Assembly: GCA_018812925.1 (NCBI GenBank)
Contig: JAHJCU010000008.1
Location: 70,744-134,743 of the forward strand
Direction: 5' to 3'
DNA: 64,000 nucleotides
From: Candidatus Omnitrophota bacterium
GTDB taxonomy: Bacteria; CAIJMQ01
Positions 8,532 to 63,674 of this stretch are shown in pieces. Both the position numbers and the translations under genes were made by a program. Within the stretch, counting starts at the first letter, position 1. Each line of letters begins with the position of its first letter. The notes below the pieces were generated by a model. It had not been told where the DNA came from. It worked only from the letters and a program-made list of their open reading frames with translations, and did not search any database.

Positions 8532-8568
8532 ATTTCTTTATTTGATGCTTACCATAAACCAAAAATCT

Positions 8569-8593
8569 CTGTCCGCTTTGCAAGCAGGCGGGG
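8569..8593. repeat. GC-rich palindromic element copy (CTGTCCG-CTTTGCAAG-CAGGCGGGG) between two tRNAs
   Basis: Matches the arms and loop of the copies at 16934 and 18059. Confidence 0.8.
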
Positions 8594-10892: not shown

Positions 10893-12956
10893 TCATTCCT
10901 TGGTTCTTCCGTTTTCTGTATTCTGTTCTCCGTTTTCTGTTGGCTGTTCCTTGTCTTCTGTATTCTGTGTTTTTTCAGACGGCAAATAAGAAGCAATCCA
11001 TCTGCATTGAGGATAGTTACTACATCCGTAGAATACCCTGCCTCTTTTATTTCTCATTTCTACTATTTCGCCGGAACAATTCTGATTTGGACACTTTACG
11101 CCGACTTTTTTCAATATTCGTTTTGTGTATCGGCACGTGGGGAAATTCAAACATGCTATAAACGGTCCGAATCTACCTTCTTTTATCATTAATTTCCCAT
11201 CGCATTCGGGGCATTTCTCGTCGGTAATTATTTCTCTTTCTTTTTTTATATTTTTCATATCCACCGATGCTTTATTCAAAACTGGTTCAAAAGACGTATA
11301 AAAATCTTTCACTATATCCGACCATTTTTTCTTGCCTTCTTCAACCTCATCGAGGCTTTGTTCCATTTCGGAAGTGAATTGTTCGTAAAATATTTTGGGG
11401 AAATTCTCAACAAGCAATTCAACCACAACTATACCAAGTTCCGAAGGATGAAGTGCACCTTTCACGCTTCTTATATAATCCCTGTCTTTAATAGTATTCA
11501 TTATCGGAGCATAAGTCGAAGGACGACCTATACCTTCTTCTTCCAATTTCCTGATAAGCGTTCCTTCACTGTAACGCTGAGGCGGTTGTGTAAATTTCTG
11601 CTCGAGATTAATATCTAATAAATTTACTTTTTCCTGTTCTTTTAAAATAGGCAACACATTTACTTCTTCCTCTTCTTTTTTAAAAAGAACTGTATAGCCA
11701 TCAAACTTTGTTTTTCTACTTTCGGTTGCAAATATATAATCTCCGCCTAATAGTTTTATAGTATTCACTTCTGTTATCTTTTGAGTCATTTGGGAACCTA
11801 AAAATCGGGTGTATATCAGTGTGTATATTTTTAATTGAAAAGGGTCTAAATATTCTTTTATTTTTTCAGGGGAAAGCTCAACATTCGTTGGGCGTATAGC
11901 TTCATGCGCTTCCTGAGCGCCCTTTTTTGCCTTGAATTTGGGGGGAGAAGAAGGAAGATATTCTTTGCCGAAATTTTTAAGTATCAATTCTCTCGCTTTA
12001 TCTTGAGCACTTTTACTAATATTAAAAGAATCTGTTCTCATGTAAGTAATAAGCCCCGTCAACTCATCTCCGACGTTAACACCTTCGTATAATTGCTGCG
12101 CTATTCTCATCGTCCTTTGAGCAGAAAATCTAAATATGCTGTGAGCTTGCTGTTGCAATGAACTTGTAATAAAAGGGGGAGGAGCATTTCTTTTTTCTTC
12201 TCTGGTAGTAATACTTTTTACAATAAAGTTTTGTTTTTCTATATCGGTTTTTATATCAAAAACTTCATCCTTAGGAAATTTTGTAATCTTTTTACCTTTA
12301 AATTCTTTAAGTTGAGAAGAAAATTCTTCATTGTTTTGCGTAGAAAATTTGCCAAGAACCAAATAATATTCTTCCGGAACAAATGCCTGTATTTCTTTTT
12401 CTCTATCCACAACGATTTTCAAAGCAACTGTTTGAACCCTACCCGCAGATAATCCTTTTCTTACTTTTTTCCACAACAAAGGTGAGATTTTATAACCTAC
12501 GAGTCGGTCCAGAACTCTCCTTGCCTTACCCGAATCAACTTTGTTTACATCTATTGCAGTAATATGTTCCAGTGATTCTTTGATAGCAGAAGAAGTAATT
12601 TCGTGAAACAAAATTCTGGAAATATTTTTATTAACAGGGCTTATTTCTTCAGCTAAATGGGCACAGATTGTTTCCCCTTCCCTATCAGCATCAGCCGCAA
12701 GAAGAACTTGTGAATATTTTTTAGCCTCGCTTTTTAGCTCTTTGAGGATTTTCTTTTTTCCTTTGATAACAGTATAAGTGGGTTCAAAATCATGCTCAAC
12801 ATCAACCCCTAATTTGCTATTCGGTAAATTTTTTATATGCCCCATGCTCGCGCTAACTTTATATCCTTTCCCAAGAAAAGATTGAATAGTTCGCGCCTTT
12901 GCAGGAGACTCAACAATTATAAGCGAATCTTTTATAAGCGACTTTTTCTTTGACAT
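10893..12956 (-). CDS. topA: DNA topoisomerase I with C-terminal zinc ribbons and a heptamer-encoded tail
   Basis: TOPRIM start LIIVESPAKARTI, active-site region ITYMRTDS, and Cys4 ribbons (CPECDG..C..C, CPNQNCSG). Confidence 0.95.
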   Translation of the reverse strand: MSKKKSLIKDSLIIVESPAKARTIQSFLGKGYKVSASMGHIKNLPNSKLGVDVEHDFEPTYTVIKGKKKILKELKSEAKKYSQVLLAADADREGETICAHLAEEISPVNKNISRILFHEITSSAIKESLEHITAIDVNKVDSGKARRVLDRLVGYKISPLLWKKVRKGLSAGRVQTVALKIVVDREKEIQAFVPEEYYLVLGKFSTQNNEEFSSQLKEFKGKKITKFPKDEVFDIKTDIEKQNFIVKSITTREEKRNAPPPFITSSLQQQAHSIFRFSAQRTMRIAQQLYEGVNVGDELTGLITYMRTDSFNISKSAQDKARELILKNFGKEYLPSSPPKFKAKKGAQEAHEAIRPTNVELSPEKIKEYLDPFQLKIYTLIYTRFLGSQMTQKITEVNTIKLLGGDYIFATESRKTKFDGYTVLFKKEEEEVNVLPILKEQEKVNLLDINLEQKFTQPPQRYSEGTLIRKLEEEGIGRPSTYAPIMNTIKDRDYIRSVKGALHPSELGIVVVELLVENFPKIFYEQFTSEMEQSLDEVEEGKKKWSDIVKDFYTSFEPVLNKASVDMKNIKKEREIITDEKCPECDGKLMIKEGRFGPFIACLNFPTCRYTKRILKKVGVKCPNQNCSGEIVEMRNKRGRVFYGCSNYPQCRWIASYLPSEKTQNTEDKEQPTENGEQNTENGRTKE
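10906..10975 (-). repeat. 10 tandem degenerate heptamers (sense ACAGAAN) encoding the topA C-terminal tail
   Basis: Plus strand reads cttccgt tttctgt attctgt tctccgt tttctgt tggctgt tccttgt cttctgt attctgt gtttttt. The encoded tail is KTQNTEDKEQPTENGEQNTENGRTKE. Confidence 0.85.
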
Positions 12957-15469: not shown

Positions 15470-16843
15470 ATGCTCAAAAAATTTTTTAAACAAGATAAAG
15501 ATATTACAACAGGACCTATTCTGCCAAAAATGCTTTCTCTTACCGGTCCTCTGATGGTAACAGCCATTCTCAATTCTACGCTCAATTTAATCGATATGTT
15601 CTGGGTCGGAAAACTCGGCAGCGATTCCATAGCAGCGGTAGCCATAGGCGGAACTATTATGATGGTTGTTTTTGCAACACTTATAGGCATAACCAGAGGA
15701 ACCATTGCGCTTGTTGCCCGATATGTGGGAGCAAAAGATGCAAAAAATGCGGACGCCGTCGCAAGCCAATCCATAATGCTGGGTTTAATTATAGCTTTGG
15801 CTACAATATTAGTCGGGCTTTTATTTACGGATAAACTATTTCTGATATTAGGCGCAAGTCCGGAAGTTTTAAAAATCGGCAGTTCATATCTTAAGATAAT
15901 TCTCATAGGCGGAATAACAATGGTTTTGCTATCCTTCGGAAACTCCATACTACAAGCAGAGGGAGATACGGTAACACCTATGAAATTCATGTTTCTTTCA
16001 AATATTATCAACATTATATTAGACCCCATATTCATATTCGGATTGGGCGTTCCAAGAATGAACACATCAGGCGCCGCTTTGGCAACAGTGCTGTCTCAAG
16101 CTGTGCCCGCTTTTTTAGTGCTTCTTTTACTTTCTAAAAGACGCTCCAAAGTTCATATACACATTTCACAGTTTAAAATTAAACTGACATTTTTAAAAGA
16201 AATGCTCAAAATAGGACTGCCTGCTTCATTGCAGATGTTTTTCAGAAGTATAATGGGCTTAGTTCTAATGGGTATTGTCGCAAGTTTTGGAACAGCGGCT
16301 ATTGCCGCTTATGGAATCGGCATGAGACTACAAATGCTTGTTCTTATGCCGGCCTTTGCCTTTGGCGGCGCCGCCGCTACCCTGGCAGGACAAAACTTGG
16401 GCGCCAAACAGCCCAAAAGAGCCCAAAGAAGCGCATGGACAGCAACAACTCTCGATATGTTTCTAATGATTTTAGTAGCCATTCTATTCTTTATTTTTGC
16501 TCCGCAAATTGTCGGATTTTTTATAAAAGATAAAAATGTAATTTCTATTGGAACTCAATTTTTAAGAATAACCGCGCCTTTCTATTTATTTATTCCGCTG
16601 GGTGTTGTGCTTGGACAATCATTAGCCGGCGCAGGAGATACAATAACGCCGATGTTTATCACATTGTTGTCGCTTTGGGGATTTCAGATACCTATGGCAA
16701 TATATCTTTCCCAAGCAACTATGTGGGGAATTAACGGCATTTGGTGGACAAACGCTTTTGCTTCAGTTCTGCACGGACTTCTCATAATGGGTTGGTTTAC
16801 AACAGGAAGATGGAAGAAAAGAATAATATCTTCTATAGTATAG
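15470..16843 (+). CDS. MATE family efflux transporter
   Basis: 457 aa, about 12 TM helices, with the two-fold repeat pattern typical of NorM/DinF-type MATE pumps. Confidence 0.88.
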   Translation: MLKKFFKQDKDITTGPILPKMLSLTGPLMVTAILNSTLNLIDMFWVGKLGSDSIAAVAIGGTIMMVVFATLIGITRGTIALVARYVGAKDAKNADAVASQSIMLGLIIALATILVGLLFTDKLFLILGASPEVLKIGSSYLKIILIGGITMVLLSFGNSILQAEGDTVTPMKFMFLSNIINIILDPIFIFGLGVPRMNTSGAALATVLSQAVPAFLVLLLLSKRRSKVHIHISQFKIKLTFLKEMLKIGLPASLQMFFRSIMGLVLMGIVASFGTAAIAAYGIGMRLQMLVLMPAFAFGGAAATLAGQNLGAKQPKRAQRSAWTATTLDMFLMILVAILFFIFAPQIVGFFIKDKNVISIGTQFLRITAPFYLFIPLGVVLGQSLAGAGDTITPMFITLLSLWGFQIPMAIYLSQATMWGINGIWWTNAFASVLHGLLIMGWFTTGRWKKRIISSIV

Positions 16844-16933: not shown

Positions 16934-16958
16934 CCCGCCTGCTTGCGAAGCGGGCAGG
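16934..16958. repeat. GC-rich palindromic element copy (CCCGCCTG-CTTGCGAAG-CGGGCAGG)
   Basis: Its reverse complement is nearly identical to the intragenic copy at 18059-18082. Confidence 0.85.
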
Positions 16959-16960
16959 AA

Positions 16961-17070
16961 GCCCGTATCGGTTAATTTACGTAACCCGTAACTCGTAATT
17001 GGTAATTTTTAAAATTACGGATTACGATTTACAGATTACCGATTACGAAAAAATGGGCATCGTAACCTTA
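16961..17070. repeat. GTAA/TTAC heptamer-periodic inverted array (long imperfect hairpin)
   Basis: cgtaacc cgtaact cgtaatt ggtaatt ttt aaaattac ggattac gatttac agattac cgattac. Confidence 0.8.
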
Positions 17071-17696: not shown

Positions 17697-17715
17697 GGCA
17701 ATCTATGAGATTGCC
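17697..17715. repeat. perfect 8-bp hairpin GGCAATCT-ATG-AGATTGCC
   Basis: Read directly. The stem resembles hairpin 3 of the 65-nt element. Confidence 0.7.
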
Positions 17716-17747
17716 TGTCCGCTTCTTGCAGAAACAAGCAGGCGGAC
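17714..17747. repeat. GC-rich palindromic element copy with a long loop (CCTGTCCG-N18-CAGGCGGAC)
   Basis: Arms match the family consensus with 1-2 changes. Confidence 0.7.
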
Positions 17748-17767: not shown

Positions 17768-17832
17768 CCCCTAGAAATTGCGAATGCAATTTCAGGGACC
17801 AAAGTCCCGGAAATCCTATGGATTTCATGGGG
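17768..17832 (-). repeat. 65-nt three-hairpin element, copy 3 (divergent)
   Basis: Minus-strand read: CCCC AT [GAAATCC ATA GGATTTC] C [GGGAC TTTG GTCCC] T [GAAATTGC ATTC GCAATTTC] TA GGGG. Lies 46 nt after the uvrC stop. Confidence 0.8.
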
Positions 17833-17877: not shown

Positions 17878-19590
17878 CTAATGAGAAGAATTCTGGACTT
17901 CTTTTTTCTTCAGTTTTCCATAATAAGAATGTGCAAATCTATGTGCTTCGTCACGGACACGCGCAAGAAAACGGAAAGATTCCATGCGAGGATTTAAGAT
18001 TATCATTCTGGAAGAATAAGATAAGTGAATTTTGTTCTCACCTCTTGACCCGTATAGACCTGCCCGCTTCGCAGCAGGCGGGAATCCATTTCTAACGGGT
18101 TTAGCTATTCCTACAATTGGCATATTCTCTATGCCTAACTCGTTGAAAACTTGTTTGGCAATGTTAACTTGTCCTTTACCTCCATCTACGAGGACTAAAT
18201 CAGGCAATTTAGTTTTTTCGTTAAGTATTCGCTTATATCTTCTTTCAATTATTTCCCCCATCATCATATAATCATCCGACGTATCAATGCTTTTAATTTT
18301 GAATTTTCTCCATTCATTTTTCTTGGGAGAACCCTTCTCAAAGACAACTACGCTTCCGACCGCATTCTTCCCCATTATATTTGAAATATCTATTCCTTCT
18401 ATTCTAAAAGGAACCGAAGGAAGATTTAATCTCTCTTTAAGGTCTGTAAGCATATTTATGGGTTCAGATTTTAATGAGAATCCCTCCATTAATTTATATT
18501 GCGCATTATCGCTTGCCATCTTGAGCAATCTCTTCTTATCACCCCTTTGGGGAACGGAAATCTTTACGGTTTTGCCTTTGGTTTTTTTCAGCCATTTTTC
18601 CAAAAGATTCTTTTCTTTCAGAATAACCGGAACAAATATTTCATCGGGAATACCTGCCCGACAATATTCAGCAGGCGGGAGAGAACTCAATGAATAATAT
18701 TGTTCTATGAAAGATAGAACAGCTTCTTCTATTTTAGAATCTATTATCACTATCAAGTTGAATTTTTCCTGCGCCGATAATTTCCCATTTCGCACCTTAA
18801 ATAAAACAATTAAAGCTTTATTTTTAGATCTCGCATAACCTATGAAATCCTGATTTTGTCCGTCTAATTTCGAAATTGTTTGAAGGGAAAACATTTTATG
18901 GATTGATTCTATTTGGTCTCTAAATTTTGCGGATTTTTCATACTCTTTAGATGCGCTCGCCTCATTCATTCTATTTTTAAGGTAAGAAAGCAACTTTTGG
19001 GTTTCCCCCGAAAGAAACATAGAAACATTTTCAATCATTTCCATATAATCTTCTTTTGAAACCTTACCCGTGCAGGGACCTACACATCTTGCAATATGAT
19101 AATTAAGACAGGGTTTGCCGTCTATTTTGGTTTTCTTACAAGTCTTAAAAATAAAAGTCTTTCGCAGCAGCAATAGAGTCTTTCTTAAAGATTTTGCATC
19201 GGTGTATGGACCAAAATATTTTGCTTTTCCATCCTCCAGGTCACGCGTTATATAAACCGTCGGAAACTGTTCTTCCCGAGCTATCTTTATATAAGGATAA
19301 CTTTTATCATCTCTCAACATTATGTTGTATCTGGGTTTGTGTTCTTTGATTAGATTGCATTCAAGTATCAATGCTTCAACTGCAGATTGAGTAATGAGGT
19401 AATCTATTGATACTGTTTTTTTTGTTAAGACAGCGTCCTTGCCGAAAAAATCGGGATTTTGAAAATGCGACTTTACTCTGTTTCTTATATTCCCTGCTTT
19501 GCCTATATAGAGATAATTGCCGTTTCTATCTTTGAAAATATAAACGCCGGCAGAAGTCGGAAGTGCGTTTACCTTTTCTCTAATTTCCAT
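17878..19590 (-). CDS. uvrC: excinuclease ABC subunit C (apparently lacks the C-terminal HhH2 domain)
   Basis: GIY-YIG N-terminus GVYIFKDRNGNYLYIGKAGNIRNRV, a UVR domain, and the endonuclease region LVDGGKGQ...RDEAHRFA. The ORF ends about 25 aa later. Confidence 0.9.
   Translation of the reverse strand: MEIREKVNALPTSAGVYIFKDRNGNYLYIGKAGNIRNRVKSHFQNPDFFGKDAVLTKKTVSIDYLITQSAVEALILECNLIKEHKPRYNIMLRDDKSYPYIKIAREEQFPTVYITRDLEDGKAKYFGPYTDAKSLRKTLLLLRKTFIFKTCKKTKIDGKPCLNYHIARCVGPCTGKVSKEDYMEMIENVSMFLSGETQKLLSYLKNRMNEASASKEYEKSAKFRDQIESIHKMFSLQTISKLDGQNQDFIGYARSKNKALIVLFKVRNGKLSAQEKFNLIVIIDSKIEEAVLSFIEQYYSLSSLPPAEYCRAGIPDEIFVPVILKEKNLLEKWLKKTKGKTVKISVPQRGDKKRLLKMASDNAQYKLMEGFSLKSEPINMLTDLKERLNLPSVPFRIEGIDISNIMGKNAVGSVVVFEKGSPKKNEWRKFKIKSIDTSDDYMMMGEIIERRYKRILNEKTKLPDLVLVDGGKGQVNIAKQVFNELGIENMPIVGIAKPVRNGFPPAAKRAGLYGSRGENKIHLSYSSRMIILNPRMESFRFLARVRDEAHRFAHSYYGKLKKKEVQNSSH
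18059..18082. repeat. GC-rich palindromic element inside uvrC, in-frame (encodes PPAAKRAG)
   Basis: cctgcccgcttcgcagcaggcggg. Coding strand reads CCG CCT GCT GCG AAG CGG GCA GGT. Confidence 0.85.
18653..18679. repeat. GC-rich palindromic element inside uvrC, in-frame (encodes PPAEYCRAG)
   Basis: cctgcccgacaatattcagcaggcggg. Coding strand reads CCG CCT GCT GAA TAT TGT CGG GCA GGT. Confidence 0.85.
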
Positions 19591-25158: not shown

Positions 25159-25326
25159 CCGTAATTGGTAACTCGTAAAGCGCCCCGTGGAATCTAAAAG
25201 ATTCCCGGGACCAAAGTCCTTGAGATTGTTCATCAATCTCTAAGGGTAATTCGTAACTTTTTTTAATTACCAATTACCATTTACGGATTGCTGTTTACCA
25301 TTTTCGTAATTAGTAATTACGAAAAT
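25159..25326. repeat. GTAA/TTAC heptamer-periodic hairpin carrying the 65-nt element in its left arm
   Basis: cgtaattggtaactcgtaaagc [65 nt] gtaattcgtaac ttttttt aattaccaattaccatttacgg... Confidence 0.8.
25182..25246 (+). repeat. 65-nt three-hairpin element, copy 1
   Basis: GCCCC GT [GGAATCT AAA AGATTCC] C [GGGAC CAAA GTCC] TT [GAGATTG TTCAT CAATCTC] TAA GGG. Confidence 0.85.
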
Positions 25327-25403: not shown

Positions 25404-25520
25404 AGCTAGAAATCAAAAAACGGATGCTAGATGCTTGATACTAGATACTCGTAGAAGCAAACGAAAATAATTTTATTAACGAGCATCCAGAATCTAGTAT
25501 CGAGAATCGAGTAATTCTGA
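25404..25520. repeat. CTAGAT-word palindromic repeat, copy A
   Basis: Shares tagatactcgtagaa..aataatttattaac.agcatc.agaatctag.atc with the copy at 37099 and arms with the copy at 34342. Confidence 0.8.
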
Positions 25521-29973: not shown

Positions 29974-31050
29974 ATGAAAAAATTAGGTGTCTTGGCTGTA
30001 ATTATTGTTGCTATTATTGTTGTTCTGTTTTCTATAAAAAATTTTCGCAAGGATACAAAAGATGTTATTCCCAACGAGATAAATAAGCAGATAAATGAAG
30101 AATTATTAAACGCTTCAATTCGTGGGAATATAGAAACTGTTCAAACACTTCTCGATAAAGGAGCAGACGTAAATGCGAAAAATAATGGCGGCTATACTGC
30201 ATTATGGTGGGCTTCCTTTAACGGACACGCTGATATAGTGAAACTACTCATTGAAAATGGTGCAGATATCAATGTGAAAGCAAAAAAGGATGGTTGGACA
30301 GCATTAACTGTAGCTTCCTTTGATGGACATCTAGATATGGTAAAAGTGCTCGTCGAAAATGGGGCTGATATCAACGCGAAAGATAATGAACAAGCTACTG
30401 CACTAATACAAGCTTGCCGAAATGGAAAAATTAATATAGTTAAATTGCTGATTGAAAAGGGAGCGGATATTGATACAACAGACAATGAAGGTTATACCGC
30501 ATTAATGACAGCTTTCGAAAACGGATGGACCGACATAGCAAGCCTTCTTAAACAGGCAGGAGCAAACATGAAGATAGGCATAAAGGAAGAATTGTTGATA
30601 GCATTGAGAGAAGGAAATGTAGAAAACATCCTATCTCTTCTCGAAAAAGGAGCAGATGTGAATACAAGATATCATAGCGGCAGGACTGCATTAATGCAAA
30701 CATATCAAATTGAAGTAATTAAACTGCTTATTGATAAAGGGGTGGATGTCAACGCGAAAACAAATAACGGCAGTACTGCACTAATAGGAACTTCCATGAA
30801 TGGACAAAATGATATAGTAAAACTGCTTATTGAAAAAGGGGCAGACATTGATGCAATGAACAATAACGGCTATAGCGCGTTAATTATAGCTTCTTCAATG
30901 GGACATACCGATTTAGTTGAATTGCTTATTGATAAGGGCGCATATGTCAATGCAAAACCCAAGAATGGCTGGACTGCGTTAAAGTGGGCTTCCCAAGACG
31001 GACACGCAGATATAGTAGCACTACTTAAACAAGCAGGGGCAAAAGAATAA
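29974..31050 (+). CDS. membrane-anchored ankyrin-repeat protein (about 9-10 ANK repeats)
   Basis: N-terminal TM helix, then repeated G.TALM.A...GH.DIVKLLIEKGADVNAK units. Confidence 0.9.
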   Translation: MKKLGVLAVIIVAIIVVLFSIKNFRKDTKDVIPNEINKQINEELLNASIRGNIETVQTLLDKGADVNAKNNGGYTALWWASFNGHADIVKLLIENGADINVKAKKDGWTALTVASFDGHLDMVKVLVENGADINAKDNEQATALIQACRNGKINIVKLLIEKGADIDTTDNEGYTALMTAFENGWTDIASLLKQAGANMKIGIKEELLIALREGNVENILSLLEKGADVNTRYHSGRTALMQTYQIEVIKLLIDKGVDVNAKTNNGSTALIGTSMNGQNDIVKLLIEKGADIDAMNNNGYSALIIASSMGHTDLVELLIDKGAYVNAKPKNGWTALKWASQDGHADIVALLKQAGAKE

Positions 31051-34341: not shown

Positions 34342-34428
34342 CCGATTCTAGATACTTGATGCTGGATACTAGTAGAAACATAATAAAAAAGTTTTAACTA
34401 GAATCAAGAATCTAGTATCCTTTTTTTT
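34342..34428. repeat. CTAGAT-word palindromic repeat, copy B
   Basis: aaccgattctagatacttgatgctggatactagtagaaaca... The same 5' end occurs in the copy at 37099. Confidence 0.8.
34364..34428 (+). terminator. probable intrinsic terminator of proA
   Basis: GGATACTAG ... CTAGTATCC followed by TTTTTTTT. The loop is long (39 nt), so alternative pairings exist. Confidence 0.55.
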
Positions 34429-34442
34429 AGGTAACCAAATCC

Positions 34443-35543
34443 ATGAAAAAATTAATTCTGCCCACGCACCAGTATCACCATTACCACAATGGCAAACGAT
34501 GTGGGGTTTCGCCACAATATAAAACAACACATAAAAAAACACTGTGTATCTTAAACCTTGTGGCTACACTTTTACTGCTTCCTATCATCCTATTAGGATT
34601 TGGATTCTCTAAAAAGACATATCTTCTTATGGGAACTTTTGTGGAAATAACTCTTCCGCAGAAAAACAACAAAGTCATCAATGAAACCTTAGAAGCAATG
34701 CATGCACTGGAAGATGAGCTAAGCATTTATAATAAGGAAAGCCAAATAAACCGCATAAATTCTCTGAAAAAAGACAACCTGCAGAAAACTTCTCCCGAAG
34801 TTTATGAAGTTATCCAAAAAGCCATTTATTTCAGTAAACTGACAAACGGCGCCTTTGACATAACGGTTTCCCCTCTTCTTAAACTCTGGGATTTTGAAGG
34901 AGGAGAATTAAAAGAAATACCATCACAGGAAAAAATAGACGAAGCGCTAAGAAATATCGGCTGGCAAAACCTAATATTTACTAAAGACGGGAAAATTGGT
35001 TTTGCAAAAGATAATATGAGCATAAACCTCGGCGGAATTGCAAAAGGGTATATTGTGGATAAGGCTATATCCTATTTAAATGCAAAAGGAATAAAATCAG
35101 CACTCATAAATGCGGGAGGAGATGTTTATTGTCTCGGCGAAAAAGAAAATGGGGAATCTTGGAATGTCGGCATACGTCATCCAAGAAAAAAGAAGGGAGT
35201 TATAGGAATATTAAAACTAAAAAATAAAGCAGTAGCCACTTCAGGCGATTACGAAAAATTTTTCACTTTGAAAGGAAAAAAGTTTTGTCATATAATTAAC
35301 CCTCAAACTGGCTATCCTGTAGATAGCGCCATAATTCAAGTCACAGTAGTTGCGGAAACTTGCATCGATGCAGACGCGTTGGCAACGGCTTTAATGGTTA
35401 TGGGAAAAGAAAAAGGAATAGAATTGATAGAAAAACTCGCCAATACCGAGGTCGTTATAATAGAGGAAAAGGAAGGAAAACTCGATATAAGTTATACTAA
35501 AGGGTTGGAAGAAATTATTGAAATAAACAAGGGTAATTGGTAA
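34443..35543 (+). CDS. apbE: FAD:protein FMN transferase (ApbE family)
   Basis: MGTFVEITL, GAFDITVSPL, GGIAKGY, SGDYEK and DALATA motifs. N-terminal TM/anchor. The last codons (GNW*) lie inside the GTAA repeat. Confidence 0.88.
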   Translation: MKKLILPTHQYHHYHNGKRCGVSPQYKTTHKKTLCILNLVATLLLLPIILLGFGFSKKTYLLMGTFVEITLPQKNNKVINETLEAMHALEDELSIYNKESQINRINSLKKDNLQKTSPEVYEVIQKAIYFSKLTNGAFDITVSPLLKLWDFEGGELKEIPSQEKIDEALRNIGWQNLIFTKDGKIGFAKDNMSINLGGIAKGYIVDKAISYLNAKGIKSALINAGGDVYCLGEKENGESWNVGIRHPRKKKGVIGILKLKNKAVATSGDYEKFFTLKGKKFCHIINPQTGYPVDSAIIQVTVVAETCIDADALATALMVMGKEKGIELIEKLANTEVVIIEEKEGKLDISYTKGLEEIIEINKGNW

Positions 35544-35738
35544 CTTGTAAATTGCCCCGTGGAATCTACAAGATTCCCGGGACCAAAGTCCTTGAGATTG
35601 CTCAGCAATCTCTAAGGGTAATCCGTAATTTTTCTATTGTTAGTTATTTGTTTATTACTATTTATGAATTACTGATTACTGTTTACGATTCTTGAATTAC
35701 CATTTACCAATTACTATTTACGCTTTACGATAAATACT
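35531..35738. repeat. GTAA/TTAC heptamer-periodic array carrying the 65-nt element
   Basis: gggtaattggtaacttgtaaatt [65 nt] gtaatccgtaattttt ... gaattac tgattac tgtttac gattctt gaattac catttac caattac tatttac gctttac. Confidence 0.8.
35554..35618 (+). repeat. 65-nt three-hairpin element, copy 2
   Basis: Differs from copy 1 at only three positions, all in or closing the hairpin loops. Lies 11 nt after the apbE stop. Confidence 0.85.
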
Positions 35739-37098: not shown

Positions 37099-37182
37099 AC
37101 CGATTCTAGATGATAGATACTCGTAGAAACAAATAATTTATTAACAAGCATCAAGAATCTAGAATCAAGTATCTAGTATTCT
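37099..37182. repeat. CTAGAT-word palindromic repeat, copy C (in the ribD leader)
   Basis: aaccgattctagatgatagatactcgtagaaacaaataatttattaacaagcatcaagaatctagaatcaagtatctagta. Confidence 0.8.
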
Positions 37183-37202
37183 ATTTTCAAATTCCAGATT
37201 AT

Positions 37203-38345
37203 ATGAAGAATAAAACGGACACCAAATTCATTAAAGAGGCATTGGCTCTCGCAGTAAAAGCCGAAGGGCTCACGTCCCCCAATCCTTTGGTCGGCGCTGT
37301 TATCGTAAAGGGGAACAAAATTATCGGAAGAGGTTATCATAAAAGAGCAGGTTCTAAGCACGCTGAAATCCTTGCCCTTGAATCAGCAGGAAAGCCTGCC
37401 CACCAGCCCGCTACGAAGCTGGCAGGCAACCGAAAGGCAGGCGGGAAAACAAAAGGAGCTACTCTGTATATCAACCTTGAGCCATGCGCTCATTACGGTA
37501 AAACACCGCCCTGCGCTCCCGAAATAATAAAAGCAGGTATAAAAAGAGTTGTAATAGCTATGCCGGACCCAAATCCTTTGGTCAATGGTAAGGGGATAAA
37601 GAAACTTAAATCCGAAGGGATAGATGTACAAGTCGGTATCCTTGAACAGGATGCTAGAAAAATAAACGAAACATATATCAAATATATGACTAAAAAAATG
37701 CCGTTTGTAGTTTTGAAATGGGCTATGAGCTTAGACGGTAAAATAGCCACTCGTAAAGGCAATTCAAAATGGATTTCAGGGAAGGCTTCCAGAGAATTCA
37801 CACAAAAATTAAGAGGTAAATTCGATGCGGTTCTAATAGGGATAGAAACACTTCTTAAAGATAACCCTCAACTTAACACTCACGGTTTGGAAATAAAAGA
37901 ACCAAAAAGAATAATTATTGACAGTAAAGGAAGAATCCCTTTGGATTGCAATCTGTTAAAAACTAAAGGTGGACAGATTATAATTACCACAACAGATAAA
38001 ATAAGCAAAAAGAAAATAAGAGATTTGAAGGAAAAAGGAGCAGAGATTATAGTTATTTCTTCAAAAGAAGGCAGAGTCGACTTAAAGAAACTTATGATAG
38101 AATTAGCCAAACGAGAAATTACATCTATATTGGTTGAAGGCGGCGGAACAATAAATGCTTCATTTATAGAAAATGCCTTGGCAGATAAATTTGTGGCATT
38201 TTTATCTCCTATGATAATCGGCGGTAAAAACGCAATTTCCCCTGTAGAAGGAAAAGGAATAGAAAAAATAGCCAATGCTGTAAGAATCCGCGACTTATCT
38301 ATAAGGAAAATGGGAGAAGATGTAGTAATGGAAGGATATTTATAA
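37203..38345 (+). CDS. ribD: bifunctional riboflavin biosynthesis deaminase/reductase
   Basis: HAEILAL ... LEPCAHYGKTPPC zinc motif and a C-terminal reductase domain. Carries an about 17-20 aa insert between the two halves of the deaminase motif. Confidence 0.92.
   Translation: MKNKTDTKFIKEALALAVKAEGLTSPNPLVGAVIVKGNKIIGRGYHKRAGSKHAEILALESAGKPAHQPATKLAGNRKAGGKTKGATLYINLEPCAHYGKTPPCAPEIIKAGIKRVVIAMPDPNPLVNGKGIKKLKSEGIDVQVGILEQDARKINETYIKYMTKKMPFVVLKWAMSLDGKIATRKGNSKWISGKASREFTQKLRGKFDAVLIGIETLLKDNPQLNTHGLEIKEPKRIIIDSKGRIPLDCNLLKTKGGQIIITTTDKISKKKIRDLKEKGAEIIVISSKEGRVDLKKLMIELAKREITSILVEGGGTINASFIENALADKFVAFLSPMIIGGKNAISPVEGKGIEKIANAVRIRDLSIRKMGEDVVMEGYL
37395..37445. repeat. nested GC-rich palindromic elements inside ribD, in-frame (51 nt)
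   Basis: cctgccca ccag [cccgctacgaagctggcagg] caaccgaaagg caggcggg, encoding PAHQPATKLAGNRKAGG. Confidence 0.8.
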
Positions 38346-40312: not shown

Positions 40313-40780
40313 ATGATTAAAACATATAAAGCTGATTTAGTGGTTAAAGGTAAAAAAATTGCTCTGATATGTTCTCGTTTCAACGAATTTATTACGGGCA
40401 AACTCCTTGACGGCGCAATAGACACACTTACACGACATGGCGCAAAAGAAAACGAGCTCGAAGTGTTTTGGGTCCCGGGTTCATTTGAAATCCCATATCT
40501 CGCCAGCAAACTTGCACAGAAGAAAAAATACGATGCGATTATCTGCTTAGGCACAGTAATAAAAGGTGACACATCACACTGGGAACACATAGCGAAAGAA
40601 GTGACTAAAGGCATAGCTCAAATTTCTCTTGCAACAGGTATACCTGTGATTTACGGAATACTCACTCCTGATACACTCGAGCAGGCAATTGAAAGAGCAG
40701 GAACAAAATCTGGCAACAAAGGCAGAGACGCCGCATTAGCAGCTATTGAGATGGTTAATTTGTTCGGACAGATAAAGTAA
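40313..40780 (+). CDS. ribH: 6,7-dimethyl-8-ribityllumazine synthase
   Basis: 155 aa with [21 protein letters not shown] and [12 protein letters not shown]. Confidence 0.93.
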
Positions 40781-40819
40781 AGCAGTTTTAAGTCATAAGT
40801 AATAAGTTTTAAGTAACTG
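40781..40819. repeat. TAAGTT heptamer array after ribH
   Basis: cagtttt aagtcat aagtaat aagtttt aagtaac tg. Confidence 0.65.
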
Positions 40820-40863
40820 ATAAAAAACTGTTAATAAACGGTCTTTGATTTGATGGGAAACAT

Positions 40864-41310
40864 ATGAGCTCAAGACGAAAAGCAAGAGAATTGGCTTTGA
40901 AGGTTCTTTATCAGAATGATTCTATGCCCCATGATGGGACAGAACCACTTTCTACTTGGAAAGACACATTCAAGTATCTGACTGATATTATGGATATTGA
41001 TAAAGAAGAGAAGAAGTTTGCAAAAGAACTGGTAGAAGGAACTTTAAAAAACATTGAGTTGATTGATCCCAAAATCTCCGAATTTTCTAAACATTGGAAA
41101 ATCTCGAGAATTTCCGTAGTTGACCGAAACATTATGCGTATTGCCTGTTACGAGATGCTATTTTCAGAAAAAGTCCCCCATGCAGTATCTATCGACGAAG
41201 CAATAGAGCTAAGCAAAAAATATTCTGCAACAGAAAGTAAATCATTCATAAACGGCGTTTTGGATGGGATATGTAAGGACTTACAAAAAAAATCAAAAAT
41301 AAAAAATTAA
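40864..41310 (+). CDS. nusB: transcription antitermination factor NusB
   Basis: SRRKARELALKVLYQ start and a DRNIMRIACYE motif. Confidence 0.9.
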   Translation: MSSRRKARELALKVLYQNDSMPHDGTEPLSTWKDTFKYLTDIMDIDKEEKKFAKELVEGTLKNIELIDPKISEFSKHWKISRISVVDRNIMRIACYEMLFSEKVPHAVSIDEAIELSKKYSATESKSFINGVLDGICKDLQKKSKIKN

Positions 41311-48485: not shown

Positions 48486-49037
48486 ATGTCAAATATAATT
48501 TTTTATACTTTCCTTGACTCATTTTTAGGAACAATAGGGCTCGCTTCGTCTTCTTCGGGCGTGGTATATGTGGATATGGGAATAAAAAAAAGAGCTTTTT
48601 TATGTAAACTAAAGCAAAAATTCCCGACCTGTAAACTAATAAAATCGGAAAAGAAAAACTCTAAAGCGATATGTGAATTAAACTCTTATCTGAAAGGAAA
48701 TATGAAATCGTTTGAAAGTAAGCTGGATTTAAAAGGCCCGCCCAAATCATGTCGGGCAGGTCCTCCAAAATCTCGGCGGGCAGGCACGCCTTTTCAGATT
48801 AAAGTATGGAATTGTTTAAGAAAAATTCCTTACGGTAAAATGTATTCATATAAATTTATTGCCTGTAAAATAGCAACATGCTCCCATTCGCGCGCGGTCG
48901 GCAATGCTGTCGCTAAAAATCCTGTTGCGATATTTATTCCCTGTCATAGAGTAATCAATTCCAACGGGGATTTGGGGAATTATGGCCCCGGCAAGAACTT
49001 CAAGAAAATGTTATTAAAGATTGAAAAAGCAATATAA
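48486..49037 (+). CDS. ogt: methylated-DNA-protein-cysteine methyltransferase
   Basis: TPFQIKVW, IPYGKMYSY, and active site IPCHRVI. Confidence 0.88.
   Translation: MSNIIFYTFLDSFLGTIGLASSSSGVVYVDMGIKKRAFLCKLKQKFPTCKLIKSEKKNSKAICELNSYLKGNMKSFESKLDLKGPPKSCRAGPPKSRRAGTPFQIKVWNCLRKIPYGKMYSYKFIACKIATCSHSRAVGNAVAKNPVAIFIPCHRVINSNGDLGNYGPGKNFKKMLLKIEKAI
48737..48784. repeat. two tandem GC-rich palindromic elements inside ogt, in-frame (48 nt, PPKSCRAG PPKSRRAG)
   Basis: cccgcccaaatcatgtcgggcagg tcctccaaaatctcggcgggcagg. Splits the conserved G-TPFQ junction. Confidence 0.85.
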
Positions 49038-61945: not shown

Positions 61946-62218
61946 ATGAAGAAACGCACCGGTAAATATTACGTTTATATTGTTAAATGTCAGAAAGGGA
62001 CATATTACATCGGTTATACAAATGATATTAAAAATCGGCTTAAACTACATAACAGGGGCCTTGGCGCTAGATACTTAAGAGGTAAATCGCCTATAGAATT
62101 AGTCTATGTTAAAAAATATAAGTATTATAAGAGTGCGATTAATAAAGAAATATCACTTAAAAAACTAACAAGGAAACAGAAAGAGGAATTGATTAAAACT
62201 TATGAAAAAACAAAATAG
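61946..62218 (+). CDS. GIY-YIG nuclease domain protein (UPF0213-like)
   Basis: YYVYIVKCQKGTYYIGYTNDIKNRLKLHN. Confidence 0.85.
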   Translation: MKKRTGKYYVYIVKCQKGTYYIGYTNDIKNRLKLHNRGLGARYLRGKSPIELVYVKKYKYYKSAINKEISLKKLTRKQKEELIKTYEKTK

Positions 62219-63674
62219 TAAGTTATCCCCCCTTGATTCTGCTCATTGCATTCGCAAAATCAAAACAGGGGGGACGGCACCGAAAGTTTTCATTCAAACT
62301 TTCGGGTGCCAGATGAATAAATACGACTCAGAGATTATGAAGTCGCTTCTCTTACAAGAAGGATATGAATTTACCGACAATTGGCAAAAGGCAGATGTAA
62401 TACTGGTTAATACCTGTAGTGTAAGACAACATGCGGAAGAAAGGGTATATGCGCATTTATGGAAATGGAGCAGATATAAGCAAGAATCAAAACCCAATTT
62501 GATAATCGGTATATGCGGATGTATGGCGCAGAAAGAAGGAATAAATATTCTAAACAAAATACCTCATTTAAATCTTGTATGCGGAACTTACAGTATTCCT
62601 AAAATTCATGAATTTGTAAGGGATTTACTTAAAACCGGCGGCAGGCGCATTGAAACTTCAGAAGATTACACTGATTTCCCTGCGCCTATTTATGAGATAA
62701 GAGACAGCAAAATTTCTGCGTGGGTGGCAATTATGAGGGGATGTAATAACTATTGCGCCTATTGTGTCGTGCCGTATGTCAGAGGTAAAGAAATAAGCCG
62801 TCCTGTAGAAGAAATAGAAACGGAAATCAAGGAACTTGCCCGCAAAGGCATAAAAGAAGTAACGCTTTTGGGGCAGAATGTTAACTCATACGCATCTCAG
62901 AAGACAGAAAACAGAAGACAGAGGACAGAAAAAAATAAAAATGATTTTGCACACTTGCTGAAAAGAATAAATGACATAAAGGGGATTGAACGGATAAGAT
63001 TCACAACTTCGCATCCGAAAGACATGTCTATCGTTACTATTGAAGCTATAAGAGATTTGCCAAAAGTTTGCGAGCATATTCATCTGGCATTACAGTCTGG
63101 TTCCGACAGGATTTTGAAACTGATGAATAGAAAATATACAAGGAGCCAGTATAAAGAGCTTGTTGACAGAATCAGAGCGACTATTCCAGATGTAAGCATT
63201 ACTACCGACATAATGGTTGGATTTCCTACCGAAACCAAAGATGACTTTATGGATACTTATAATCTTGTCAAAGAAATAGGATTTGATGCGTCTTATATAT
63301 TCAAATATTCGACAAGACCCGGAACAAAAGCCGCCGATATGGAAGATGATATACCTGAAGAAATAAAAAAAGAACGACTCAACAAGCTTCTTTCTCTTCA
63401 AAAAAGAATAGTACAGAAGAAAAACGAAAAATTAATCGGTAAAGAAGTTGAAATCCTCGTTGAGGGAATTAATAAAAGAGGAAGTAAATTGTTAAGTGAA
63501 ACCACGTGCATTTCCGAACCCGACGGAGTTCGGAAATGTTACGTGGGGAAGACTCGTAATTTCAAGTATGTCTCTTTCCAAAGCGATAAAAACTTAATCG
63601 GAAAACTGGTAAAAGTGAAGGTTGTAAAAGTAAGAGGTGGGTTGTTTGAGGGAATTTTAGTTGACAAAAGTTGA
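62202..63674 (+). CDS. miaB: tRNA-i6A37 methylthiotransferase
   Basis: FIQTFGCQMN, radical SAM CNNYCAYCVVP, and a TRAM domain C-terminus. Confidence 0.93.
   Translation: MKKQNSKLSPLDSAHCIRKIKTGGTAPKVFIQTFGCQMNKYDSEIMKSLLLQEGYEFTDNWQKADVILVNTCSVRQHAEERVYAHLWKWSRYKQESKPNLIIGICGCMAQKEGINILNKIPHLNLVCGTYSIPKIHEFVRDLLKTGGRRIETSEDYTDFPAPIYEIRDSKISAWVAIMRGCNNYCAYCVVPYVRGKEISRPVEEIETEIKELARKGIKEVTLLGQNVNSYASQKTENRRQRTEKNKNDFAHLLKRINDIKGIERIRFTTSHPKDMSIVTIEAIRDLPKVCEHIHLALQSGSDRILKLMNRKYTRSQYKELVDRIRATIPDVSITTDIMVGFPTETKDDFMDTYNLVKEIGFDASYIFKYSTRPGTKAADMEDDIPEEIKKERLNKLLSLQKRIVQKKNEKLIGKEVEILVEGINKRGSKLLSETTCISEPDGVRKCYVGKTRNFKYVSFQSDKNLIGKLVKVKVVKVRGGLFEGILVDKS
62227..62273. repeat. GC-clamped inverted repeat CCCCCCTTGATT - 19 nt - AATCAA(aaca)GGGGGG in the miaB N-terminal extension
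   Basis: Read directly. Encodes part of SPLDSAHCIRKIKTGG, upstream of the conserved FGCQMN start region. Confidence 0.75.
62898..62932 (+). repeat. five tandem heptamers (CAGAAGA CAGAAAA CAGAAGA CAGAGGA CAGAAAA) inside miaB
   Basis: Same ACAGAAN word as the topA tail. Encodes QKTENRRQRTEK. Confidence 0.85.

Follow-up and report, generated by a model that had tools for sequence, protein, structure and literature searches.

A probable pair of nested hairpin repeats in-frame in ribD of a Candidatus Omnitrophota bacterium

Introduction

Short palindromic repeats have been described in several kinds of genome, and here we compare them with a GC-rich 51-nt insert in ribD, the gene for a bifunctional deaminase/reductase, of a Candidatus Omnitrophota bacterium. 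The whole stretch of DNA that was analyzed, referred to as the window, is 64,000 nt long (assembly GCA_018812925.1, contig JAHJCU010000008.1, positions 70,744 to 134,743 of the forward strand), and coordinates given below count from its first nucleotide. Our reading, to which we assign a probability of roughly 0.7, is that the insert represents selfish filler DNA, i.e., a 27-nt hairpin member of a repeat family that subsequently received a nested 24-nt member, the whole being translated and tolerated by the host protein.

Among the closest described counterparts are the small dispersed repeats (SDRs) of cyanobacteria. Elhai et al. reportedly described SDR4, SDR5, and SDR6 of Nostoc in 2008 as non-coding, dispersed elements of 21 to 27 nt with hairpin potential, which are said to nest in other repeats and to have an unknown mobilizer. 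SDRs also occur within tandem heptamer repeats; in the family discussed here, flanks of this type are found at 7 of 68 copies. This family shares with SDRs the size class (24, 25, and 27 nt in our case), the hairpin potential, the lack of coding capacity, dispersed copies, nesting, and the existence of empty and filled orthologous sites. As judged from SDR descriptions in citing papers, it appears to differ in sequence; it also differs in hosts, and it has colonized housekeeping genes in-frame at high frequency. To our knowledge, the multiplication of very short palindromic repeats (REP, SDR, and organellar GC clusters) is largely unsolved, and apart from the RPEs of Rickettsia, which are much larger, essentially no bacterial repeats are known to enter genes in-frame. 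"Small dispersed repeats" as a name for the cyanobacterial elements is used in PMC3116915, and PMC4390886 states that SDR5 inserts precisely into HIP1.

The RPEs [Ogata et al. 2000; summarized in PMC10969869] are about 150 bp long, lie in-frame in unrelated genes, are translated, and have been argued to be compatible with the fold of the host protein. Palindromic structure and in-frame location in unrelated metabolic genes are features that our family has in common with them. RPEs, however, encode a conserved peptide and are confined to Rickettsia, whereas the units in the window are 24 to 27 nt long, are read in several frames, nest in one another, and have an identical core in several phyla. 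REP and REPIN elements, associated with RAYT transposases [PMC3116915] and including REPs tagged with GTAG or CGTC [PMC3733652], resemble our units in being imperfect palindromes of 20 to 40 nt with an unpaired conserved tetranucleotide and a high copy number, and in being sometimes clustered. The tag here is CCTG rather than GTAG or CGTC. Moreover, REPs are extragenic, whereas our family also has in-frame copies in ribD, uvrC, and ogt and in their orthologues, its arrays are direct and not inverted doublets, and no RAYT was seen among the 40 window open reading frames (ORFs) scanned against Pfam.

In yeast and other AT-rich mitochondrial genomes, palindromic GC clusters of 18 to 48 nt or more are bordered by AG or ACT direct repeats that are taken as target duplications, and one GC cluster lies within a gene, var/rps3 [PMC4478555]; for sponges, repetitive hairpin elements are reported in PMC2800124. 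These clusters are likewise GC-rich hairpins in an AT-rich genome, with presence/absence polymorphism, merging or nesting, and an intragenic copy. They are organellar and have these presumed duplications, whereas the elements considered here lie in a bacterial chromosome and show no duplication at defined sites. PATEs, miniature elements derived from IS200/IS605, insert without target duplication beside a fixed short target and have subterminal hairpins at both ends; our units have one hairpin each, show no duplication at three defined sites, and are flanked by A/T runs with no fixed tetranucleotide. We regard the repeats in the window as a new family within a kind of element that is already known, and as unusually small, unusually frequent in housekeeping genes, and shared across phyla.

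The insert in RibD

The host gene (37203–38345, plus strand) is intact with 380 codons. A protein identical to the window RibD (P0001) matches PF00383 and PF01872 in Pfam, and the best match in the PDB is 2b3z (E 4e-77). The insert, CCTGCCCACCAGCCCGCTACGAAGCTGGCAGGCAACCGAAAGGCAGGCGGG, occupies positions 37395–37445 and corresponds to residues 65 to 81, PAHQPATKLAGNRKAGG, flanked by ESAGK and KTKGATLY. A first-pass annotation of the window had quoted this sequence exactly, as 51 nt lying in-frame within ribD. The GC content of the insert is 70.6%, relative to 37.1% for the remainder of ribD and 36.4% for the window. GCCTGCC at 37394–37400 can pair with GGCAGGC at 37421–37427 and also at 37436–37442, and the mRNA of the insert is predicted to fold into one hairpin nested in another, with -22.4 kcal/mol and a z of -2.0. 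The corresponding copy in a relative, L001, is better kept and gives -27.8 kcal/mol with a z of -2.9.

The 17-residue segment is a clean gap in 26 of the 30 RibD homologues that were aligned, and is found only in the window RibD and three relatives that are approximately 90% identical to it; every aligned RibD at or below about 78% identity is without it. Two solved structures, Bacillus subtilis RibG (2b3z) and another RibD (9no2), have the same 17-residue gap. The RibD alignment that the first-pass annotation had proposed as a check thus shows no conservation of the segment and does not refute its interpretation. Empty, codon-exact sites in the syntenic relatives L145, L146, and L147 place the insertion between AAG (K64) and AAA (K82), and the codon alignment with these three shows no duplicated flank at the insertion point.

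The insert is present in four independent assemblies. Its carriers are about 92% identical to the window in DNA, and the three other assemblies come from different samples (two from ENA and one from Logan). The window insert differs from their copy at 3 of its 51 positions, and two of the three substitutions fall in parts of the elements where the family consensus defines the base. L001 has the consensus base at both. Because the other assemblies keep the consensus there, the window copy is the more decayed one. Two of the three substitutions between the window and L001 change an amino acid (H/R and R/Q).

The first-pass annotation described the zinc motif region of the deaminase as split by the insert, a wording that needs correction. 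In the AlphaFold model, residues 65 to 79 have a predicted local distance difference test score (pLDDT) below 50, in a model with a mean pLDDT of 83 and a confident core. The insert is located between helix 54–61, i.e., the HAE helix, and strand 87–92 leading to PCxxC. H53, E55, C95, and C104 are invariant in the 30-homologue alignment. With the insert in a surface loop between the zinc ligands (H53/E55 on one side and C95/C104 on the other), no motif is interrupted. Since the insert keeps the reading frame, is free of stop codons, and occupies a loop that separates one half of the zinc site from the other, RibD carrying it is probably still functional.

Two further sites in ribD vary among the relatives, and one of them is filled in L001 and empty in the window. 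At site 3 (block 307–324 of the codon alignment), L145 has a different in-frame insert of 54 nt, CCCGCCCCTCA...TGAGGAGCGGG, with an inner GCCAT-TT-ATGGC palindrome. The RibDs P0010, P0011, and P0014 carry PLF(R/S)SAKQSSGDK at site 2, and P0005, P0015, and P0016 have PARF.../PARQ... inserts at a fourth site.

Two family members within 51 nt

The repeat family has the consensus CCTGCCCGCTTCGCAGCAGGCGGG. A module of 24 to 27 nt consists of a 5′ CCTG tag, the stem arm CCCGC(C), a loop of 6 to 10 nt, and the stem arm (G)GCGGG. A two-arm pattern has eight matches in the window, compared with none in the reversed control and 0 to 4 (mostly 0 to 1) in local shuffles; one of the eight (16370–16389) was not counted as a family copy, and two lie within the ribD insert. 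Family arms are found elsewhere in the window at 8568, 16934, 17714, 18059, 18653, and 48737. The arms of the ribD insert match copies at these six sites as well as at 61 loci in public genomes, the comparison with other copies being a further check named in the first-pass annotation, which likewise does not refute its interpretation.

The insert starts with the 5′ part of an outer element (37395–37402, plus strand), comprising the CCTG tag and the left stem arm, CCTGCCCA. In L001, this arm reads CCTGCCCG followed by C, and is equal to the consensus arm CCTGCCCGC. Next comes an inner element of 24 nt (37403–37426), CCAGCCCGCTACGAAGCTGGCAGG as read on the plus strand, which is assigned to the minus strand as it represents the reverse-complement orientation of the consensus. 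It agrees with the reverse-complement consensus at 20 of 24 positions in the window and at 21 of 24 in L001, and its arms, CCAGC/GCTGG, are a compensated version of CCCGC/GCGGG. The outer element then continues on the plus strand with its loop and right arm (37427–37445; CAACCGAAAG plus GCAGGCGGG), and when joined to 37395–37402 it yields a 27-nt family member. In L001, the first 9 and the last 9 nt of the insert are exact consensus arms, and removal of the inner 24-mer leaves CCTGCCCGCAACCAAAAGGCAGGCGGG, 27 nt in length. Hence, 51 is the sum of 27 and 24, two canonical sizes of the family, and the 27-mers of L150, L029, and window positions 18653–18679 have the same length and arms. When the 51-mer was shuffled 20,000 times, a 24-mer within four substitutions of the family consensus never arose. 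The nested, GC-rich palindromic character that had been noted for this interval is confirmed by these data.

Seven other nested cases were found, in L029, L012, L046, L145, L146, L150, and the window uvrC, and in every nested case the inner element occupies the host hairpin's loop or the edge of that loop. In L029, the arrangement is CCTGCCCGACAA[24-mer]TATTCTGCAGGCGGG. At ribD site 2, an exact 24-mer lies inside another hairpin in L145, and a nested case is also present in L146.

Presence and absence at uvrC and ogt

The window uvrC (17878–19590, minus strand) contains three inserted elements, one of which is nested. A composite of 57 nt (18043–18099, minus strand) consists of a 33-nt, AT-richer palindrome of the CCCGTTAGAAAT...ATTTCTAACGGG family with an exact 24-nt consensus element (18059–18082) in its loop, and encodes PVRNGF-PPAAKRAG-LYGSR. 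The third is a 27-nt family element (18653–18679, minus strand) that encodes PPAEYCRAG and is window-specific among the four uvrC genes compared, i.e., those of the window, L148 (92.2% nucleotide identity), L149 (87.5%), and L150 (75%). The sites lie in a variable linker of UvrC and were placed by close homologues; the PDB alignment gave no clear placement there.

Five in-frame presence/absence differences distinguish these four genomes. One 27-mer each is private to L148, L149, and the window. Three of the four genomes have the 33-nt palindrome, which 14 of 19 aligned UvrCs (L149 and 13 more distant ones) lack. Its loop is unoccupied in L148, while the window has the 24-mer there and L150 has a different 27-mer. 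Together, L149 (empty), L148 (host palindrome), and the window (host palindrome with nested 24-mer) represent stepwise states of one site. Taking the window elements out restores the codons of the relatives exactly, CT|T for the 27-mer and TT|T for the 24-mer, and therefore no target-site duplication was made in uvrC. With ribD, this gives three defined insertion sites without duplication. Polymorphic in-frame sites among close relatives amount to five in uvrC and at least three in ribD.

A third gene, ogt (MGMT; 48486–49037), carries two tandem 24-nt units in-frame (48737–48784, plus strand; GPPKSCRAGPPKSRRA), read as PPKSCRAG and PPKSRRAG. The orthologue in L147 lacks 16 residues here.

The first-pass annotation inferred ongoing mobility from the nesting in ribD. 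That insert alone does not show it, since it is common to relatives at 92% identity and three substitutions have been gained; the window-specific inserts in uvrC do. Recent mobility is demonstrated at uvrC and not at the older ribD insert.

As a separate observation, CCCGTTAGAAAT seeds a second repeat family, with eight matches in the window (18088, 21275, 21350, 23694, 46611, 48275, 48329, and 55686) vs 0.4 expected. Its members are palindromes and are also found in intergenic DNA of L001. In addition, the UvrC of the window clade (17878–19590; homologues P0121–P0128) has about 550 to 570 residues and no Pfam match to the C-terminal (HhH)2 domain (PF12826/PF14520), which homologues from approximately 67% identity downward do have.

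Reading frames, folding, and flanks of the family

The family consensus is without a stop codon in all six frames, and it is read in several of them across genes (PARFAAGG, LPASQQA, and PPAAKRA are among the peptides). All 14 coding inserts have lengths that are multiples of three, while 9 of the 11 intergenic copies listed do not. This length rule together with the stop-free consensus is the signature of elements that would be translated and filtered by selection, not spliced out. An intein, an intron, or translational bypass was rejected on the same grounds; for inteins and group I/II introns, the elements are also far too small, and Rfam at gathering thresholds returned only four tRNAs in the window.

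With respect to structure, three copies with compensated arm changes point to a stem CCCGC:GCGGG preceded by the unpaired CCTG, and a second pairing register may also form. For single 24-mers, DNA folding gives weak z-scores (-0.8 to -1.4); the argument rests on comparative data and not on thermodynamics. The conserved 5′ tetranucleotide CCTG (CAGG on the other strand) is present in all copies. Their flanks are A/T runs with no fixed tetranucleotide. Direct-repeat flanks of 7 or 14 nt or heptamer arrays accompany 7 of 68 copies, and the lag-7 autocorrelation of the flanks is 0.35 vs 0.27. Heptamer periodicity was dropped as a defining trait of the family, as it is real but confined to a subset of the copies.

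The three intergenic copies in the window are one of 25 nt at 16934–16958 (minus strand; CCTGCCCGCTTCGCAAGCAGGCGGG on that strand), one of 25 nt at 8568–8592 (plus strand), located between two tRNA genes and conserved in the syntenic relative L032, and a long-loop copy of 33 nt at 17714–17746 (plus strand) with the compensated arms TCCGC...GCGGA. The same compensated arms are present in L008.

Distribution across genomes

The exact 24/25-mer was found in 61 stretches of public genomes from about a dozen metagenome-assembled genomes (MAGs). According to the record titles, these belong to Bacteroidia, Saprospiraceae, Chitinophagales, Cyclobacteriaceae, Deinococcus, Desulfotomaculum, Ratteibacteria, and unnamed bacteria, so that at least four phyla are named, with the qualification that some of these MAGs come from one sample or study, may not be independent lineages, and may contain binning errors. 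The loci range from 34% to 62% in GC content. No cyanobacterium is among the 61 matches, only two IMG/VR contigs carry the 24-mer in a search for a phage vector, and the sequence was not found printed in the literature searched. The closest named relative by UvrC is a Candidatus Ratteibacteria MAG at 69% identity, and GTDB gives GCA_964573245.1 as the window's relative.

The 24-mer stands alone in Bacteroidia and in the clade of the window. In two genomes it lies inside larger, genome-specific repeats of about 140 to 160 nt, and in a Saprospiraceae MAG it is the variable-copy direct tandem core of a larger repeat. The repeat-embedded loci from other phyla form three groups [L005, L020, L022, L023, L036, L048, L051, and L056; L006, L009, L033, L037, L045, L049, L053, L054, and L058; L013, L021, L025, L026, L035, and L047]. 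This pattern suggests that the 24-mer module may invade other repeats or be shared between them.

Origin of the insert and alternative explanations

In the model that we favor, a 27-nt member would have entered ribD between the present codons K64 and K82 without target-site duplication, and its loop would later have received, at the 5′ edge, a 24-nt member that was most likely inverted with respect to the first. Both insertions would predate the split from the 92%-identity relatives, with later decay by point substitutions, and the insert would be translated and not removed. It would persist because its length is a multiple of three, because the family is stop-free in any frame, and because the site is a disordered surface loop. 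Which event came first and how the copies are made are what we infer, whereas membership in the family, lineage-specific presence, exact and duplication-free insertion sites, nesting at other loci, the length rule, and the position in a loop are shown. The claim of at least two insertion events in the first-pass annotation draws support from the 27 + 24 composition, the seven other nested cases, and the stepwise series in uvrC; its rival is a single insertion of a composite formed elsewhere, which is considered below.

Several observations count against this model. No transposase, RAYT, or reverse transcriptase was seen among 57 of the 59 window ORFs (40 scanned against Pfam and 17 named by synteny; the other two, 61946–62218 and 62202–63674, lie at the right-hand end), and no gene recurs beside the copies in other genomes, the neighbors in a Bacteroidia MAG having been examined. 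The 10-nt outer loop CAACC(G/A)AAAG is without a twin elsewhere in the data examined. Covariation is thin, with three clear compensated pairs (the inner ribD copy, window 17714, and L008), and apart from these it is ambiguous between the two pairing registers, which a covariation count cannot separate given that most copies do not differ from one another and the unit is quasi-palindromic. This last property also bears on the orientation of the inner element, as the two orientations of the consensus differ at just 6 of 24 positions: the inner copy has three mismatches in one orientation vs six in the other in L001 (21/24 vs 18/24), and four vs five in the window (20/24 vs 19/24). The opposite orientation that the first-pass annotation assigned to the inner copy is thus moderately supported.

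Concerning the number of events, a 51-nt composite that had nested or merged elsewhere might have been inserted once, or an element of 27 to 36 nt might have been partly duplicated in place by slippage. We consider such a single event unlikely. The direct repeat GGCAGGC at 37421 and 37436, 15 nt apart, agrees with slippage, but the same repeat is expected under nesting, since GCAGG is the end of each element. Other genomes do hold tandem arrays and composite or merged units (L014, L025, L062, L012, and L029), and in yeast mitochondria, merged GC clusters are reported to spread as new units [PMC4478555]. However, neither the 51-mer nor its junctions have a second copy in about 0.6 Mb of family-rich loci, and the stepwise states of uvrC are found in separate relatives. 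Another possibility, which we rate as quite improbable, is that the hairpins are host-beneficial cis elements (protein-binding, pause, or recombination/repair signals) maintained by selection, with the ribD copy regulating the rib operon. Such a role could account for the identity of the 24-mer across distant lineages, for the many copies at gene ends or in intergenic hairpin-rich spacers, and for the stable hairpin predicted in the mRNA (-22 to -28 kcal/mol). It is difficult to reconcile with presence that varies at the same codon between near-identical genomes, with copies that decay by substitution, and with the absence of positional regularity relative to genes. Moreover, L147 is without inserts where compared (ribD sites 1–3 and ogt), and its rnfC-ribD and ribH-nusB spacers are short.

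An ordinary, lineage-specific expansion of the RibD loop with GC-rich codons, possibly adaptive and resembling the repeats by chance, would suit a loop that is a permissive place for insertions and deletions and a peptide rich in Pro, Ala, Gly, and Lys, as many linkers are. We give it very little weight and rejected it, as the family matches effectively refute it. The arms are the same as in the family consensus, the internal 24-mer agrees at 21 of 24 positions, and shuffling gave 0 of 20,000. Likewise, the insert has 71% GC in a 37% GC gene, two of the three substitutions change the amino acid, which argues against constraint on the peptide, and members of this DNA family in other genes have different reading frames. 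That the insert is an assembly or sequencing artefact, e.g., a chimeric read or a linker, deserves next to no credence. Errors are common in GC-rich hairpins, and the window comes from a metagenome assembly, but the insert recurs, with three substitutions, in three other assemblies from different samples, it keeps the reading frame, and the family is present in MAGs of unrelated studies.

Returning to nested insertion as the preferred reading, the mobilizer could be an enzyme that works in trans on single-stranded DNA hairpins, one of the HUH/Y1 "peel-and-paste" kind, which makes no duplication. An enzyme of this kind would fit the lack of target duplication, the A/T runs in the flanks, and the preference for hairpin loops; we nevertheless regard the proposal as speculative and rather doubtful. 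Template switching at hairpins is an alternative mechanism. A XerD-like gene is the sole recombinase-type gene among the window ORFs covered. On a broader scale, it is possible, although we lean against it, that the CCTG-tagged hairpin of 24 to 27 nt is among the smallest mobile DNA units, with an identical core across several phyla and horizontally transferred machinery that inserts it without duplication into A/T runs and single-stranded hairpin loops. If so, it would provide a steady supply of new 8- to 9-residue surface loops in essential proteins, and the allelic series of empty, filled, and nested sites would make the mechanism discoverable by phylogenetic profiling.

The lineage offers a compact natural experiment, with a uvrC that has five independent gain/loss events among genomes 75 to 92% identical and with codon-exact sites. 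The lack of duplication, the nesting in loops, and the presence of the 24-mer in unrelated phyla constrain the mechanism to one with single-strand or hairpin recognition and horizontal spread, and genes that co-occur with the repeat provide a route to the enzyme. Such inserts also inflate and distort MAG protein alignments and annotations. RibD, UvrC, and Ogt appear to tolerate much foreign loop sequence.

Other repeats and variable genes

Downstream of ribD, ribE, ribBA, ribH, and nusB follow in succession, as judged from the ORFs and from synteny with relatives. Intergenic spacers at 16976–17050, 25430–25500, 34342–34420, and 37100–37190 are built of 7-nt "words" (GATTACG/CGTAACC and GATACTN/AGTATC) in arrays followed by their reverse complement, and form long AT-rich inverted repeats. 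The spacer just upstream of ribD is one without a central GC hairpin; similar arrays elsewhere flank the 24-mer. A 101-nt intergenic repeat is present at 25161–25261 and 35533–35633 with 92% identity, and a small hairpin, ATTYCNGGGACCAAAGTCCYGGAAAT, has four copies (17789–17814, 25201–25226, 35573–35598, and 12598–12623). In L001, a copy related to the 101-nt repeat or the ATTYCNGGGACCAAAGTCCYGGAAAT hairpin lies upstream of ribD.

Compared with the window, the relatives also have small insertions of gene size in spacers that are otherwise syntenic (L001 13910–14421 vs window 40780–40864; L146 3534–3917; L147 8240–8605; and L150 6010–6363). The genes inserted are a PemK toxin pair in the ribH-nusB spacer, and solitary genes for four-helix-bundle proteins like 23S_rRNA_IVP/bAvd in the apbE-rnfC and hisB-hisA spacers. 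Finally, one region is variable, with an ankyrin-repeat protein (internal repeats of about 100 to 200 nt) encoded at 29974–31050 in the window vs two methyltransferase genes in L001 (2756–4147).

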